Origin: an uncultured Acidobacteriota bacterium
GTDB lineage: Bacteria > Acidobacteriota > Thermoanaerobaculia > Multivoradales > UBA5704
Length of the DNA: 64,000 bases
Direction of reading: 5' to 3'
Assembly (NCBI GenBank): GCA_963770895.1
Contig: CAVYRF010000001.1
Coordinates: 832,001 to 896,000, forward strand
Shown here: piece after piece, positions 23,318-29,279 of the stretch
Layout of the letters: each line of letters begins with the position of its first letter
Position numbering within the stretch: position 1 is the stretch's first letter
Made by a program: the position numbers and the translations under genes
Notes under the pieces: generated by a model
The model's database searches: none
What the model was told of the DNA's origin: nothing
What the model saw: the letters and a program-made list of their open reading frames with translations, nothing else

Positions 23318-24679
23318 TCAGGCCAGGGGCGGCGGCTTGTGCTTCGGCGCATCCGGCGTGCTCGGCGGCGGCGTGCTCTTCGGCGCGGCGGTCGGCTTCG
23401 GTGGCGACTTGGCCGGCGATCCGTTTTGGGATGCCTTGCCCGAGCCGGAGCTGCCCTCGGATGCCGGCGGCTTGCTGGATGCGGAGCTCTCCTGCGGCGG
23501 CTTGCTGGCAGCTGCCTTTTCCTGGGCCGGTTTGCCGGCGCCGGTGTTGCCCTGGGACGGCTTGGTCGAGCGAGCAGTGGCCTGGGGCTGGGGCTGCCTG
23601 GTCGTAGCCGCATTGCCTTGCGGCAGCTTGCCGGATCGGGCGTTGCCGCTGGAACCGTTCGTGCGGCTGGCATTGAAGTCGCCTCTGGACGTGGTATCGC
23701 TACGGCCGGAGGCGCCGCCGCTCGCACCACCCAGGTGACTGGGCGCCGGGACGACGGGGGGGTAGAACTTGCTTTGCGACACGGTCGCAAAGGAGCGGCT
23801 GCCATGTTGCACGGCCACCTGGTCGTGAAGGGCTCTGCCAAACTCGCCGGGCAGGGCCTGCGAAGCGCGGGCGATCACCGCCGGCTGGTAGAAGGCGCCG
23901 TGCCCACCCAGCGGGCCGGCCCCTGCAAGAGAAGCGACGGGCACCGGGGTGACCGGCCGCCCGGTGACCTGCGCGACGGTCTGCGCGCTGACGCCGACGT
24001 TGACGATGTGGTGGTTGACCACCGTGTAGCCGGTGACGTTGCCAGCACGACGGTAGATCGCCTCGTTCTGCCCCGGTGCCAGGATCAAGCCGCCGAGGCG
24101 GGGAGCCAGAATGTCGCGCTCGCCGACGAACATGAAAGAGTCCGGACTGATGACCACACCGCCGAAGGCCAATCCGCCGTCGAACGAAAATCCGACGGTC
24201 GGCGGCAGAGGCGCCCATCCCATGTACCCCCCGCCGGCCCTCCAGGCGACCCACGCCGGCGCCCAGGTGTAACCCGGCACCCACGCCCACCCCGCCTGGC
24301 TGTCATGGAACCAGCGGCCGTAGTGAAAGGCCGCCCAACCCCAGGGCTCGTGGGCCACCCACGCCCAACCCTGATCGGTGTACACCCAGTGGCCGGTGCT
24401 GTAGGGGCGCCAGTCGGACTCGACGCGCGGCACCCAGATCATGCCGTACCCCTCGCGCACCACCCACTGGCCGTAGGGGAATAGCTCCTGGTGGAAATAG
24501 TCGATGCCGGCGGCGACCGGATCGCCCGGCGCGGCGCCATCGGCGCTCTGCGGCTGGTCGTAACCAGGCTGGGCGGCACCACCCTCCCCATTTGCGGGAT
24601 ACGACGGCCCCTGAGCAAAGCCCACGGCCGCGGCGACAAGGCTGCCTGCCACGAGCAGCAGCAAAACCCCTCTGGTCAT
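23318..24679 (-). CDS. Secreted DUF6600-like (Trp-rich) protein with a low-complexity tail
   Basis: Signal peptide; LFPYGQW...WRPYSTGHWVYT..GWAWV..EPWGWAAFHYGRW...WAPAWVAW. Confidence 0.85.
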   Translation of the reverse strand: MTRGVLLLLVAGSLVAAAVGFAQGPSYPANGEGGAAQPGYDQPQSADGAAPGDPVAAGIDYFHQELFPYGQWVVREGYGMIWVPRVESDWRPYSTGHWVYTDQGWAWVAHEPWGWAAFHYGRWFHDSQAGWAWVPGYTWAPAWVAWRAGGGYMGWAPLPPTVGFSFDGGLAFGGVVISPDSFMFVGERDILAPRLGGLILAPGQNEAIYRRAGNVTGYTVVNHHIVNVGVSAQTVAQVTGRPVTPVPVASLAGAGPLGGHGAFYQPAVIARASQALPGEFGRALHDQVAVQHGSRSFATVSQSKFYPPVVPAPSHLGGASGGASGRSDTTSRGDFNASRTNGSSGNARSGKLPQGNAATTRQPQPQATARSTKPSQGNTGAGKPAQEKAAASKPPQESSASSKPPASEGSSGSGKASQNGSPAKSPPKPTAAPKSTPPPSTPDAPKHKPPPLA

Positions 24680-24739
24680 GGTTCACGTCCTCCACAGAGC
24701 CGCGCACACGAAGAGCTTCCGACGGACCGCATGGTCCGC

Positions 24740-24754
24740 GCACGGAGCGTGCCA
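24740..24754 (-). promoter_or_regulatory. Putative sigma-54 promoter for the DUF6600 gene
   Basis: Minus strand TGGCACG-CTCC-GTGC with exact GG-N10-GC spacing, about 60 nt before the ATG. An AT-rich tract lies at 24815-24845. Confidence 0.55.
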
Positions 24755-24890
24755 GGAATCGATGATCCCTTTATAAGCGAAACAGGGGCGACGGTCAATC
24801 GGCTGGCAGCCGCTAATTTATGAATTTAACGTATATTATTGTATGCCTTGTCGGAGAATGATCTCCGCCGAGCTCTCGGAGGAACGCATC

Positions 24891-25088
24891 ATGCGCAACC
24901 TATTCCGCGGTGTGGCGCTGGTCGCCATTCTCTTATCGGCCCTCGCGGGTGGATCGGTGGCCGCCAGCAGCCCATCCGCACCGGCGAGAGCGTGCGTTGG
25001 GGGAGGACACTGTTCTCTTAGCGGCCAGTCATGCATCACCACCTGCCCTGCCTATATGGGCAAATCGCAGCACTGCGTCTGTTCCTGA
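24891..25088 (+). CDS. Small secreted 6-Cys peptide, 65 aa
   Basis: GGAGG RBS and signal peptide. Mature part ACVGGGHCSLSGQSCITTCPAYMGKSQHCVCS. Confidence 0.7.
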   Translation: MRNLFRGVALVAILLSALAGGSVAASSPSAPARACVGGGHCSLSGQSCITTCPAYMGKSQHCVCS

Positions 25089-25356
25089 TGCAAGGACACC
25101 GGCGGGGAGCTGCGGCTCCTCCTGCAGCTCCCGCCAACATCTGCGCGGAATCGGCGTTCGGTATCAACGACGATCCGCGGCCCGATTCCCCCTCACTCTC
25201 GAGCTAACGGCCGGCGATGTGGATGAGGCGCGGCGCGGCCCTCCACATCGCAACCCACCACCGACCCGCGCCGCGGCCGCGGGGCACCTGCGCGGTGGCC
25301 GTGCGCGCCGCCGCGGTACAATGTGGCCCTCGCAACGACCTGGGAGAGGCGCCGTC

Positions 25357-25878
25357 ATGTGGTGCATCGGCGAAGAGGAGTCGCGTCAGTGGTGTCTGGG
25401 GCGCGGGATCAAGCTCAATGGCAAAGGCGTACCGATCGCTGATGAGGACTGGCAGGGCGACACCTTTTCCTTGCGGGAGGCATGGCCGAGCCTGACGGGG
25501 TTCAGCCGGATGCTGGCCACGCAGCTGGAGCCCTTTGACGAATGCCTGCTCTGGGTGACGCAATGGGGTGTTTTCCCCTCGAGCGAGAACCTGCATCTTT
25601 TCTATCGCATGCGCAATGGCTATGGCGAAAACCGTCAGCTGTTTCATGCGCCCGGGCACCTGTTCTTGAAACACGAGCGTGCTGATCTCGCAACATTCAT
25701 TCAGCTGAGCGTCATCAACTGTTGGGACTTCTACCTGGCGCCGGCACCGTCGTGGAAGGGAGCCTTCGTGAGCCACGACGAAGCCGTGGACTTCTATGCA
25801 GACGACGTCGATGCGGATGCGCTCAAGACGGTGAGGGCCTGGTTCGCGAAGGATTCCGCGCCGGCGCCGGCGCCTTGA
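25357..25878 (+). CDS. Hypothetical protein, 173 aa
   Basis: GGAGAGG upstream of the ATG at 25357. Composition looks like a real protein (ECLLWVTQWGVFPSSENLHLFYRMR). Confidence 0.7.
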   Translation: MWCIGEEESRQWCLGRGIKLNGKGVPIADEDWQGDTFSLREAWPSLTGFSRMLATQLEPFDECLLWVTQWGVFPSSENLHLFYRMRNGYGENRQLFHAPGHLFLKHERADLATFIQLSVINCWDFYLAPAPSWKGAFVSHDEAVDFYADDVDADALKTVRAWFAKDSAPAPAP

Positions 25879-25893
25879 CGTTCGAGGAGATCC

Positions 25894-27381
25894 ATGCGGG
25901 TTAGCGGATTGATGGTGGCGGGTCTGGGCGTCCTTGGGGCGGCGATGTCTCCCGCGGTGTCGGTGGGTGCGGCGGCGAGGGCCGCCGTGGCTGCTGGCGC
26001 CATCGTGGCTGCGGGCGACGGCGTGCCGATTCTCCAGCTCCAGCAAAGCCCGCCGGTGCACCCTCCGCCCGCCGCGGCACCGCGCGCGCCGGGTACTTTC
26101 GTCTCCTTCTCGGACCTGCACTTCAATCCGTTCTTCGATCCGTCGCTGGTCGCTCAGCTGGTGCGGGCTGACGCGGGCCGTTGGCCGGGGATCTTCGAGC
26201 GCTCGACGGTCACAGGTGTCGGCGGCTATGGCAACGATTCCAACTATGCGCTGCTGAAATCGGCGTTGGCAGCCGCGCGGGAGGCGGCGCCGGCGCCCGA
26301 CTTCGTCTTCATCTCGGGCGACTTTCTGGGTCATCACTTCCCGGCGCTGTTCGCCAGGAACGTGCCGGGATCCAGCAACGCAGCGTACCGGCGATTCGTG
26401 CACCGGACGATGCAGTTCGTCACCACGACGATCCGTCAGACCTACCCGCGAGCGCGGATCATCGCGGCGCTCGGCAACAACGACTCGGACTGCGGCGACT
26501 ACCAGCTGCGCGGCGCCAGCCCCTTCCTGGCCAGGCTCGCGCGGCTGTGGCGGCCTCTTGTGGGCCCCGTCCCCGCGTCCTTCGGCCGCACGTTCGCTAT
26601 CGGCGGGTTCTTCAGCGTGCCCCATCCCACCGTGCCGCACATACGGGTGGTGGTGCTGAACACCGTCCTGTTTTCGCCGAAGTACCAGGTCTGCGGCCAG
26701 GGGCGCGACATGAGCGAACCGGAGCTGCAGTGGCTCGACAGCACCCTGCGCGATGCGTCGCGCAGAGGCGACAAGGTCTGGCTGGTCGAGCACATCCCGC
26801 CGGGGATCGACGCCTTCGCCACCCTGGGCGCCAAGGGGCCGTGCCGCGGCGCTGCCGTATCGCTGTGGTGGGCCGACGACCTGTCCAGGTTCTGGCGCAT
26901 CCTGGCCCGGTATCCCGGCGTCGTCACCGCGACCTTCGCCGGGCACACCCACATGGATGAGCTGCGGCTGCCGGAGGGCGGCGGCTTCATCCACGTCACG
27001 CCGGCGGTGAGCCCGCTGTTCGGCAACAATCCCGGTTTCAAGGTCTTCTCCTACAGCAGGGCAGACGGCCAGATCGCCGACGCCCGCACCTACTATCTGA
27101 ATCTGGCGGCGACCGGCGACGCGGCGGGGAAGTGGGCTTTGGAATACGACTTCGCGGACGCCTATGCGCAGCCCGCGATCGACGGCCAGACCGTCCAGGC
27201 AGTGGAGCAGGCGATCGGCGACGACCCGGCGGTCCGCACCCGATACATGACCTGGTACCCGGTCGGCAGCGCCAGCGGCAGCGCCGCCCTGGCACACTGG
27301 CGGGCTTACTGGTGCGCCGCCAAGGCGTTCACGCCCGCTACCTTTGCCGACTGCTACTGCCCGGCCCAGCCGGCCCCATGA
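25894..27381 (+). CDS. Secreted metallophosphoesterase, acid sphingomyelinase-like (SMPDL3-type)
   Basis: SDLHFNP, ISGDFLGH, LGNNDS, HIPPG, AGHTHMD and PAVSP...NNPGF. Confidence 0.88.
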   Translation: MRVSGLMVAGLGVLGAAMSPAVSVGAAARAAVAAGAIVAAGDGVPILQLQQSPPVHPPPAAAPRAPGTFVSFSDLHFNPFFDPSLVAQLVRADAGRWPGIFERSTVTGVGGYGNDSNYALLKSALAAAREAAPAPDFVFISGDFLGHHFPALFARNVPGSSNAAYRRFVHRTMQFVTTTIRQTYPRARIIAALGNNDSDCGDYQLRGASPFLARLARLWRPLVGPVPASFGRTFAIGGFFSVPHPTVPHIRVVVLNTVLFSPKYQVCGQGRDMSEPELQWLDSTLRDASRRGDKVWLVEHIPPGIDAFATLGAKGPCRGAAVSLWWADDLSRFWRILARYPGVVTATFAGHTHMDELRLPEGGGFIHVTPAVSPLFGNNPGFKVFSYSRADGQIADARTYYLNLAATGDAAGKWALEYDFADAYAQPAIDGQTVQAVEQAIGDDPAVRTRYMTWYPVGSASGSAALAHWRAYWCAAKAFTPATFADCYCPAQPAP

Positions 27382-29279
27382 TCGACTTGCCGGCCGCGTC
27401 CGCGTCCGCGCCCGCCGCCTGGGCGGCGCGCAGGATTCTTCTGGCCGGCGCCGGCACGCTGCTCGTGGGGCTCATGTGGACGGGCTCGGCCCCTGCCCTG
27501 AGCCCACCGGAGAGCGTCCAGGTCGTATTCGGCGTCAAGATCCCGCTGCGTGACGGCGTGCGGCTGGGCGCCACGCTCTACCTCCCGGCGGGCGTCCCGG
27601 CGGGCGCCGGCGCGGTGCCGGTGATCTTCCGCATGACCCCGTACGTTTCGGACGGCTTTCATCCCGAGGCCCTCTACCTGGCGCGCCGGGGCTTTGCCTT
27701 CGCGGCGGTGGACGTGCGGGGGCGCGGCAACTCGGAGGGGTCCTTCGAGCCCTGGGTCGACGACGGCCGCGACGGCTACGACGTCGCCGAATGGCTGGCG
27801 GGCCAGCGGTGGGCCAACGGCAGGGTGGGCATGGTGGGGGAGTCGTACTGCGGGCGGGCGGTCTGGAGCACCCTCAAGGAGGCGCCGCCGCACCTGGCGA
27901 GCGCCGTGCCCATCGCCGCCGGGTCCGGCATGCGCTTCTGGAACGACATCCTGGGACCGGACACCTTGCAGTCGATCGCCCAGACCGCGGGAGTCACCAA
28001 CAACGAACACCTGGCCTTCGATCCGGCGTTCTGGGCCGGCAAGTACCGCGAGCTGTACCTGCGGCACCTGCCGCTGCGCCGGCTGGACAGCCTGGCCGGC
28101 TTCCCCTCGGAGATCTTCCAGCGCTTCCTCGACCACCCCACGCCGGATGCCTTCTGGGAGTCCATGGTGCCCGGACCGGCGGACTTCCGCCGCCTGCGCC
28201 TGCCGATCCTGACCATCACCGGCGCCTACGACATCAACCAGGCCAGCGCTCTGCACGCCTACCGCGAATACCGCGATGCCGCGGCGGCGCGCGGGGACGC
28301 CGCGGGGCGGTCGTTTCTCCTGCTCGGGCCGTGGGATCACGCCGGCACGCTGCGCCCGCGGCGCCAGGTCGGCGGCATCGACTTCAGTGCGGCGAGCGCC
28401 ATCGACATGCCCCGCCTGCTGGCGGACTGGTTCAGCTATTCGCTGCGCGACGGCCCGCCGCCCCCCCTGCTGGCCCAGGGCGTGGCTTATTACGTCATCG
28501 GCACGGAGCAGTGGCGCCAGGACCACGACCTGGATGCGATCTCCGGCGCGCCGCTGGACCTCTACCTGGCCTCCGACGGCGACGCCGGCTCGCTGTTTCA
28601 CTCCGGCCGGCTCGCCCTGGAGCCGCCCGGCAGCGTGCCGGCGCCGCCGGCGCCCGCGGCCGATCCCGCCCTGGCGCCGTCTCCGGGCGCCGCGCTGGAT
28701 CGCTATGTCTACGACCCCCTGGACGTTCGCCCGGCCGCGACGGAGCTGGACGAAGTCGACGCCTGGGTGACCGACCAGCGGCAGGCGGTCGCCCTGCACG
28801 GCGACGGCATCGTCTTCCACTCCGAACCGCTGCCGCGCGACACGGACATCGCCGGCGCACCGCGGCTCGACGCGTGGCTGTCGATGGACGTGCCGGACGC
28901 CGACATCGAAGCAACCCTTTCGCTGATCGACCCGCACGGTGGCAGCGTCCTGCTGGGCGCCCAGACGCTGCGCGCCCGATACCGCCAATCCCTGGAGCGC
29001 CAACAGCTGGTGCACCCCGGTGCCGTCGAGCTCTACCAGTTCACCTTTCCATTCCTCACCCGGCGCCTGCCCGCCGGCAGCCGCCTGCGCCTGGTCGTGC
29101 GATCGCCCAACTCGATCTACGCCGTCAAGAACTACTGCGCCGGCGGGGTGGTCGCCGACGAGTCGGGCCGCGACGCCCGCACTGCCCACATCGCGCTCCA
29201 CCACGACGCCCGCTACAGGAGCCGCCTGCGGCTGCCGCTGGCGCGCCCGGAGGGTGGAGAGCAGCATGTGCGCCACTGA
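27378..29279 (+). CDS. CocE/NonD-family serine hydrolase (S15-like), exported
   Basis: IPLRDGVRL, TPY, DVRGRGNSEG, GMVGESYCG and GPWDH. ATGA overlap with the upstream gene. Confidence 0.92.
   Translation: MIDLPAASASAPAAWAARRILLAGAGTLLVGLMWTGSAPALSPPESVQVVFGVKIPLRDGVRLGATLYLPAGVPAGAGAVPVIFRMTPYVSDGFHPEALYLARRGFAFAAVDVRGRGNSEGSFEPWVDDGRDGYDVAEWLAGQRWANGRVGMVGESYCGRAVWSTLKEAPPHLASAVPIAAGSGMRFWNDILGPDTLQSIAQTAGVTNNEHLAFDPAFWAGKYRELYLRHLPLRRLDSLAGFPSEIFQRFLDHPTPDAFWESMVPGPADFRRLRLPILTITGAYDINQASALHAYREYRDAAAARGDAAGRSFLLLGPWDHAGTLRPRRQVGGIDFSAASAIDMPRLLADWFSYSLRDGPPPPLLAQGVAYYVIGTEQWRQDHDLDAISGAPLDLYLASDGDAGSLFHSGRLALEPPGSVPAPPAPAADPALAPSPGAALDRYVYDPLDVRPAATELDEVDAWVTDQRQAVALHGDGIVFHSEPLPRDTDIAGAPRLDAWLSMDVPDADIEATLSLIDPHGGSVLLGAQTLRARYRQSLERQQLVHPGAVELYQFTFPFLTRRLPAGSRLRLVVRSPNSIYAVKNYCAGGVVADESGRDARTAHIALHHDARYRSRLRLPLARPEGGEQHVRH

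Follow-up and report, generated by a model that had tools for sequence, protein, structure and literature searches.

The locus and the encoded precursor

We analysed a 64,000-nucleotide stretch of DNA from an uncultured Acidobacteriota bacterium (class Thermoanaerobaculia; assembly GCA_963770895.1, contig CAVYRF010000001.1, positions 832,001 to 896,000 of the forward strand), referred to here as the window, and in particular a small open reading frame (ORF) on its plus strand that encodes a peptide with six cysteines. The ORF extends from an ATG at position 24891 to a TGA at 25086-25088, and its 65 codons specify a precursor of 65 amino acids (aa). Around it lie genes for an Amt transporter, a DUF6600 protein on the opposite strand, a 173-aa protein, an ASMase-like phosphoesterase and a Peptidase_S15 protein (Table 1). 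An initial annotation had read the product as a rare bacterial defensin-like peptide of the cysteine-stabilised alpha/beta (CS-alpha/beta) type. For the reasons set out below, we consider it likely that the product is a mini-protein exported by the Sec route, with three disulfides and an all-beta fold, and that it belongs to a new orphan family of Acidobacteriota and not to the CS-alpha/beta defensins.

The same annotation had described a signal peptide followed by a 31-residue segment with the spacing C-x5-C-x6-C-x3-C-x9-C-x-C, and the sequence agrees with both, exactly so for the spacing: the cysteines occupy residues 35, 41, 48, 52, 62 and 64 of the precursor, separated by 5, 6, 3, 9 and 1 residues. 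Read by eye, the N-terminus consists of a basic n-region (MRNLFR), the 15-residue uncharged hydrophobic stretch GVALVAILLSALAGG, and then V-A-A, which aligns with A-K-A in most of the relatives. These features point to a Sec-type signal that would be cleaved after Ala25, a position assigned by eye with the -3/-1 rule. An in-frame ATG further upstream, at 24843, would give a product of 81 aa and was rejected as the start. The homologues begin with MRN, MQN or MRK, all at the equivalent methionine and each with a GGAG box of its own, and the start was therefore placed at 24891.

The peptide belongs to a conserved family

A word-indexed search returned a single relative, P0002, of 65 aa and 91% identity to the window peptide (P0001). 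An exhaustive phmmer search against 1.84 billion representative proteins gave five matches, of which only P0002 and P0006 (64 aa) had the size of a precursor. The other three (598, 1,133 and 1,298 aa) matched through 5-7 short stretches each and were rejected, the one inspected, P0005, being a repeat protein. A profile built from four members recovered 17 proteins of 64-66 aa, and searches of whole genomes added further copies, bringing the family to about 26 distinct members, 63-66 aa in length and all from Acidobacteriota. No longer or fused form of the six-cysteine peptide was found. A homologue search had been proposed in the initial annotation as a check, and its outcome confirmed the gene while yielding members that argue against the CS-alpha/beta assignment.

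In an alignment of 19 precursors, residues M1, R2, N3, L4, R6, L10 and G39 were invariant together with Cys35, Cys41, Cys48 and Cys64, and Cys62, the fifth cysteine, was kept in 18 of the 19 rows, with a phenylalanine in its place in P0007. An alignment of the mature domain comprised 23 rows, excluding P0007 as well as P0012, P0019 and L027 (duplicates of L017 or L018), and in it all six cysteine columns were invariant (23/23). Among six loci compared by the Nei-Gojobori method, the proportion of nonsynonymous differences (pN) lay below that of synonymous differences (pS) in every one of the 15 pairs, whether the signal half or the cysteine half was counted. Because the cysteine columns are invariant, pN lies below pS and ribosome-binding sites are kept, the ORF is, as judged from these sequence comparisons, a real gene under purifying selection.

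Cysteine framework and predicted fold

The defensin assignment had been derived from the CxxxC...CxC pattern, taken as the signature of the CS-alpha/beta fold. In that fold the cysteines pair as C1-C4, C2-C5 and C3-C6, and two parallel bridges join the helix to a strand. On this reading the present peptide would have a CxxxC helix stapled to a CxC strand, with an extra N-terminal Cys1-Cys2 bridge. Several features of the window peptide are in keeping with this: it has a CxxxC (Cys48-Cys52) and a C-terminal CxC (Cys62-Cys64), it is cationic (+2), and it shares with its family an invariant G-x-C-x6-C that would fit the loose 'gamma-core' formula. Bacterial cis-defensins also exist, and one from Acidobacteria is reported in PMC11561630. 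Their framework, given there as CX(2,18)CX(3)CX(2,12)CX(4,17)CXC (PMC11561630), was matched by none of the 19 family members, the window peptide included. The pattern fails because the CxxxC of the window peptide is formed by Cys3 and Cys4, so that no cysteine lies between CxxxC and CxC. The family consensus spacing is C-x5/6-C-x6-C-x5-C-x4-6-C-x-C. CxxxC is found only in the window subclade, that is in P0001 and P0002 (2/19), and C-x5-C takes its place in the other 17 members and in eight further copies (L019, L020, L026, L028, L029, L034, L035 and L036). The residues between Cys48 and Cys52, I-T-T, are beta-branched and probably helix-averse, which argues against a helix at this position even in the window peptide.

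Structure prediction pointed in the same direction. AlphaFold2 supplied with the 19-row alignment gave a mean predicted local distance difference test score (pLDDT) of 69 overall, 73 for residues 31-40 and 84-89 for residues 41-65. As assigned by DSSP, the sole helix of this model spans residues 3-19, in the signal peptide, and the cysteine domain contains strands and bridges only. A domain-only model from 9 sequences, of low confidence (pLDDT 54.6), was likewise without a helix. The initial annotation had named a fold lacking the helix-sheet disulfide pattern as evidence against its own reading, and that is the fold obtained here, as a prediction only. Pfam returned no family for the window peptide at E <=1; at E <=10 none of the 19 members matched a defensin family there, and NCBIfam and Pfam at E <=10 gave no defensin or scorpion-toxin family for two members. 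The weak Pfam rows obtained across the 19 members were AcrZ (a signal-peptide artefact), two spider-toxin families, Dickkopf and EGF.

Bacterial cis-defensins (such as xanthusin-1, the actifensins and the five classes described by Cardoso et al. 2024, PMC11561630) are small signal-bearing precursors with a C-terminal six-cysteine domain of about 30-40 aa ending in CxC, and their taxonomic spread is rare and patchy, as it is here. The present family differs from them in its framework, in the lack of CxxxC in 17 of 19 members, in having no predicted helix and no profile similarity, and in being mostly anionic. The single Acidobacteria peptide of that source (PMC11561630) may be related to the family; it was chosen by the same pattern that the family fails. 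Taken together, we regard a CS-alpha/beta defensin as highly improbable. A genuine, rare, signal-bearing six-cysteine bacterial peptide is what survives of the initial annotation, and the CS-alpha/beta assignment is what falls away.

Proposed maturation of the peptide

We propose that residues 1-25 serve as a Sec signal, which signal peptidase I would cut after V-A-A (A-K-A in most relatives). The product of about 40 aa would then be oxidised in the periplasm, a DsbA-like protein being encoded in the genome (a Thioredoxin_4 gene). Genes for maturation, export or immunity were not seen linked to the peptide gene. The oxidised product is predicted to form a compact domain with three disulfides and an all-beta fold.

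Some observations weigh against this picture of an exported all-beta domain. The export and the cleavage site rest on reading the N-terminus by eye, and VKOR was not found in the genome (DsbB was not searched for). The absence of a helix depends on one medium-confidence AlphaFold2 model. Foldseek and VIA-align gave no structural match, a result that is uninformative for a 31-residue domain. None of the 9 sequencing runs listed is on record as RNA. Finally, the GC content at third codon positions (GC3) of the ORF, 0.68, is atypically low compared with 0.83-0.94 in neighbouring genes.

Sequence evolution and possible function

We compared the two halves of the ORF in loci L016-L019, where the signal/pro half was defined as the first ~105 nucleotides (nt) of each ORF, corresponding to 24891-24992 in the window. 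The synonymous divergence (dS) was 0.08-0.49 in the signal/pro half versus 0.81-1.57, near saturation, in the cysteine half, and the nonsynonymous divergence (dN) was 0.05-0.16 versus 0.12-0.45. The low synonymous divergence of the signal half suggests RNA-level constraint or recombination between copies. The flanking ABC proteins are about 90% identical among L017, L018 and L019, and the peptides of these three loci are 67-78% identical to that of L016. The net charge of the domain (K+R minus D+E) lies between -2 and -4 in 17 of the 19 members, the exceptions being the window peptide (+2) and P0002 (+3). In these last two, moreover, loop 3 is shorter and loop 4 longer. The best-conserved loop of the family is that between Cys2 and Cys3 (S-x-S/T-G).

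Conotoxin superfamilies are known for a conserved signal joined to a hypervariable mature peptide. The present family resembles such venom and antimicrobial peptide gene families in that the signal is conserved, even synonymously, and the cysteine framework is kept while the loops vary. It differs from them in being bacterial and single-exon, in a mature dN/dS below 1 and in a copy number of 1-2 per genome.

Our best guess for the function is a role between organisms, because the family has an accessory, patchy and sometimes multi-copy spread, its signal is conserved whereas its mature part evolves fast, and its charge shifts from anionic in most members to cationic in the window subclade. The folded domain would be a stable extracytoplasmic binder used against other organisms. 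That this role is antimicrobial or toxin-like we put forward tentatively, as possible but short of probable. Against an antagonistic role stands the anionic character of 17 of 19 members, unlike typical membrane-active peptides. In addition, no immunity or dedicated export gene is conserved at the family loci, and dN/dS of the mature part is below 1 (~0.1-0.4), with no positive selection demonstrated on ~30 codons and small samples. A metal-binding, metallothionein-like role was given low weight: the number of cysteines is even and invariant in an exported protein, and histidine is not conserved.

Resemblance to beta-defensins and knottins

A profile search of the PDB gave 2mn3_A, 'Defensin-BvL', as the best match, with E = 0.055 for the A7 profile and 0.35 for the smaller A4 profile, both non-significant. 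The alignment pairs five cysteines and several glycines, with a spacing of x6, x6, x6 and x5 in the match. 2mn3 is probably a platypus beta-defensin-like peptide. The second match was 7fbp_B, an engineered cyclic squash-type trypsin-inhibitor knottin (MCoTI-type), with a non-significant E = 0.23; here Cys2-Cys6 of the family fall on Cys1-Cys5 of the knottin, with loop lengths of 6/5/3/1. We treat both matches as leads only. A PDB sequence search with the single precursor gave chance matches only, for example RuvC and OppF. The ESM Atlas offered at best a cosine of 0.86, reached by clusters of secreted or hypothetical proteins, and no usable named match for residues 26-65.

The knottin match bears on function, since the same molecule could be a periplasmic or secreted knottin-like inhibitor of foreign proteases or other enzymes, and not an antimicrobial. 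A trypsin inhibitor as the second-best profile match would fit this, as would the mostly anionic character of the members, which suits a binder over a membrane-active peptide, and the conservation of the Cys2-Cys3 loop above all others. Set against these points, the match is non-significant and alignments dominated by cysteines are chance-prone, the loop contains no conserved basic or otherwise obvious P1 residue, and neither Foldseek nor VIA-align gave a structural match. Linear inhibitor cystine knot (ICK) peptides follow the spacing C-x3-7-C-x3-8-C-x0-7-C-x1-4-C-x4-13-C, which matched none of the 19 members, and have a knotted C1-C4, C2-C5, C3-C6 connectivity. We rank an inhibitor of this kind next after the antimicrobial or toxin-like role and consider it unlikely.

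With regard to fold, the family is like the beta-defensins (trans-defensins) in its predicted all-beta domain of ~30 aa with six cysteines and in the cationic charge of the window peptide. Beta-defensins have a spacing of about C-x6-C-x3-7-C-x5-13-C-x4-7-CC; this too was matched by none of the 19 members, and the family ends in CxC and not in CC. Passages of PMC11561630 place trans-defensins in vertebrates and some invertebrates only. To the squash knottin the likeness lies in the loops (x6, x5, x3-5 and x1), in the C-terminal C-I-C and in the alignment of five successive cysteines, and the difference is that the sixth cysteine is N-terminal in the family and C-terminal in the knottin. One may speculate that the family is a circularly permuted knot, an arrangement compatible with the 7fbp_B alignment.

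A bolder reading would make the family the first bacterial case of an all-beta three-disulfide fold hitherto eukaryotic, either beta-defensin-like or a circularly permuted squash-type knottin, that evolves in venom-like fashion with a conserved signal, hypervariable loops and an anionic-to-cationic switch, and that has spread as a cassette of ~330 nt among soil Acidobacteriota. We rate this combined proposal as distinctly unlikely. If it were true, a eukaryotic-type fold in bacteria would be relevant to the still unsettled question of where trans-defensins or knottins arose, and would offer a new, genetically compact scaffold.

Defensins, knottins and other disulfide-rich mini-proteins are valued as scaffolds of extreme stability and as starting points for antimicrobials or inhibitors. 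To our knowledge the great majority come from eukaryotes, and each of the few known from bacteria is of the CS-alpha/beta type. We found no curated family, no solved relative and no description of the present peptides in the literature, which was covered mostly at the level of titles and abstracts. The family belongs to a known broad kind, the small secreted disulfide-rich bacterial peptides; its framework and the family itself are new. The analysis thus corrects the defensin label and defines a well-supported orphan family. With its different six-cysteine framework, the family would constitute a new scaffold and a new data point on the prokaryotic origin and diversification of such peptides, and its practical value hinges on whether the peptide is made and on what it binds.

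Modified-peptide and chance explanations

The precursor might also be read as that of a ribosomally synthesised and post-translationally modified peptide (RiPP), for example a lanthipeptide whose modifying enzyme acts in trans, as for the prochlorosins, with an N-terminal leader and a hypervariable core rich in Ser, Thr and Cys. A conserved N-terminal half joined to a fast-evolving, Cys/Ser/Thr-rich C-terminal half, in scattered and sometimes duplicated copies, fits this reading, and LanC-like domains are abundant, with 14 matches in this genome and 7-13 in four other carrier genomes. Yet a modifying enzyme adjoins the peptide gene in 0 of 4 context classes, and the nearest LanC-like match lies ~155 kb away, on the same contig. 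No other peptide in the genome shares this N-terminus, so none lies beside a synthetase. The 15-residue uncharged hydrophobic core with its AxA-type end appears typical of Sec signals and not of RiPP leaders, and six invariant cysteine columns form a fixed framework, unlike the hypervariable cores of lanthipeptides. A RiPP precursor is thus very unlikely. The LanC-like matches are an observation in their own right: several of the 14 lie in open frames of ~1,000-1,130 aa, the size of LanM, 14 control genomes gave none, and the lanthipeptide-synthetase complement of this genome is unusually large.

Least credible is a spurious ORF, an open frame and cysteines that arose by chance in GC-rich DNA. 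Small cysteine-rich ORFs are indeed common: 764 of the 27,876 six-frame ORFs of 45-120 aa in this genome carry at least six cysteines within 32 aa, and 84 of those 764 also contain CxxxC...CxC. The cysteine pattern alone has no significance beyond chance in a 72% GC genome, and the case for a real gene therefore rests on the comparative evidence. The GC3 under the host coding norm and the lack of any run on record as RNA also fit a chance frame. Within 24400-25900, contigs from four soil DNA runs cover only the flanks and leave a gap at 24808-25266, so they carry no information on the ORF. A chance origin is hardly tenable in the face of same-length homologues in at least five genomes, with all cysteines and ribosome-binding sites kept and pN below pS; the overlapping 322-aa frame, moreover, would have a GC3 of ~0.56 across the stretch.

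Distribution

The peptide family was found in 5 of 401 genomes of the class, namely this genome and 4 of 9 genomes of a genus (g5) in the same taxonomic family, and each of two complete g5 chromosomes carries two copies. None of the 9 other genomes of the window genus (completeness 84-94%) yielded a copy. Scans of genomes and metagenomes for related loci drew on an 11-row subset with majority-type patterns and may have missed close relatives of the window subtype. This genome has no paralogue of the peptide. The relatives come from records labelled Acidobacteriota or Thermoanaerobaculia, and a candidate from Myxococcaceae (L021) was rejected, as it had no family-type ORF. The family is so far limited to a few uncultured soil Acidobacteriota. 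The g5 loci have 61-67% GC, and the ORF, at 63% GC, is nearer to them than to the window at 72%. This is compatible with horizontal acquisition; at 44% identity, no sampled genome would be the donor.

Genomic context

We compared the surroundings of the gene at nine loci (L016-L020 and L026-L029), which fall into three context classes, the window forming a fourth (Table 1). No neighbour gene common to different classes was found among the four, and the ORFs at 12-40 kb of the window had no matches in loci L016-L020. Neighbours at other family loci also include TrmO and DinB genes. A same-genus genome, G003, shares only the ASMase-like gene with the window locus, too little to define an insertion site.

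Table 1. Features of the peptide locus, context classes of the family loci and other ORFs of the genome (G000; C1 and C2, contigs; offsets of minus-strand cysteine-rich ORFs count along the reverse complement).
Feature	Location	Strand	Remarks
Conserved upstream block	24811..24877	+	AT-rich stretch (55% GC in the 72% GC window), then 5'-untranslated region (5'-UTR) hairpin at 24850-24869; nine loci aligned
Ribosome-binding site GGAGGA	24878..24883	+	7 nt 5' of the ATG; GGAG or AAGGAG at equal distance in 9/9 homologous loci
Predicted signal peptide, residues 1-25	24891..24965	+	MRNLFR, hydrophobic core, V-A-A; direct reading; matches family ...PSAKA motif
Ser/Pro/Ala-rich N-terminal tail of predicted mature peptide, residues 26-34	24966..24992	+	AlphaFold2 pLDDT <50 for residues 18-31
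Six-cysteine domain, residues 35-65, and stop codon	24993..25088	+	C-x5-C-x6-C-x3-C-x9-C-x-C; cysteine columns invariant
GC-rich terminator-like hairpin	25101..25135	+	13 nt past the stop codon
173-aa ORF (excluded neighbour)	25357..25878	+	268 nt downstream of the peptide gene
DUF6600 protein	23318-24679	-	453 aa
ASMase-like phosphoesterase	25894-27381	+	
Peptidase_S15 protein	27132-29279	+	
Context class 1	L017, L018, L019, L026, L027, L028		Divergent ABC-2 transporter pair and ~100-aa charged protein upstream; one close lineage, ABC proteins 90-100% identical
Context class 2	L016		CHASE histidine kinase, SDR
Context class 3	L020, L029		HNH and YhcG nucleases
Context class 4	window		
~100-aa charged protein	L017:5408-5740, L018:4957-5304, L019:5566-5910, L026:1758-2102, L028:3574-3906		
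LanC-like matches (examples)	C2:4307735-4308793, C2:272850-273980, C1:1011767-1012966		
Other cysteine-rich small ORFs	G000: C1:1844280, C1:1990504, C2:2718073	+	
Other cysteine-rich small ORFs	G000: C2:2774823, C2:3466485, C2:2885497	-	

The block of ~65 nt upstream of the gene aligns across nine loci of four context classes. Its hairpin, predicted by RNAalifold, has 5 pairs, mostly conserved in sequence, with 1 compensatory change; judged by this alignment the hairpin shows conservation and not covariation. A search for a sigma-70 consensus gave none, and we regard the block as a putative promoter. Downstream, the segment 25086-25150 folds with -31.6 kcal/mol (z = -2.65), and 2 of 200 shuffles fold as well. 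Stems after the stop codon were predicted in five other loci (z: L019 -2.50, L017 -1.85, L016 -1.17, L018 -0.95, L020 +0.14), among which only L019 stands out from its shuffles. The 3' hairpin is a putative terminator; the window copy has no T-run. With its upstream block, ORF and 3' hairpin, the peptide gene looks like a self-contained cassette and is probably monocistronic. Rfam gave no family in the window.

The 173-aa ORF downstream had been suggested as a possible immunity protein for the peptide. It lies behind the strong hairpin, has no Pfam or NCBIfam family, and went undetected at L016-L020, the five family loci that were set against the window. Because it has paralogues of its own (two in this genome, at C2:3858720 and C2:2564479, and one in a same-genus genome), occupies a low-GC dip (61% GC) separate from that of the peptide gene, and is set off by its distance beyond the hairpin, it does not appear to be a partner of the peptide gene, and the immunity suggestion was dropped. 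It represents a sporadic orphan family in its own right.

Minor observations on neighbouring and other small genes

In context class 1, a conserved, highly charged protein of ~100 aa without a Pfam family lies between the divergent ABC-2 operon and the peptide gene; it begins M-A-D-K-D-K and has E/R/K-rich, helical-looking repeats. In the window, the DUF6600 protein has a long low-complexity C-terminal half rich in Pro, Ser, Ala and Lys. It is read from the opposite strand and starts ~210 nt away from the peptide gene, so that the AT-rich intergenic region is common to both. The listed ORFs of the ASMase-like and Peptidase_S15 proteins overlap by ~250 nt. In the long ORF the Peptidase_S15 domain does not begin before residue 141, and the true start of this protein is therefore probably further downstream.

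Six other small ORFs of 67-113 aa in the genome combine a signal-like N-terminus with a cysteine-rich C-terminus. Repeated CxxxC spacings in four of these (67-78 aa) suggest a single family. The genome may thus encode several families of secreted cysteine-rich mini-proteins.

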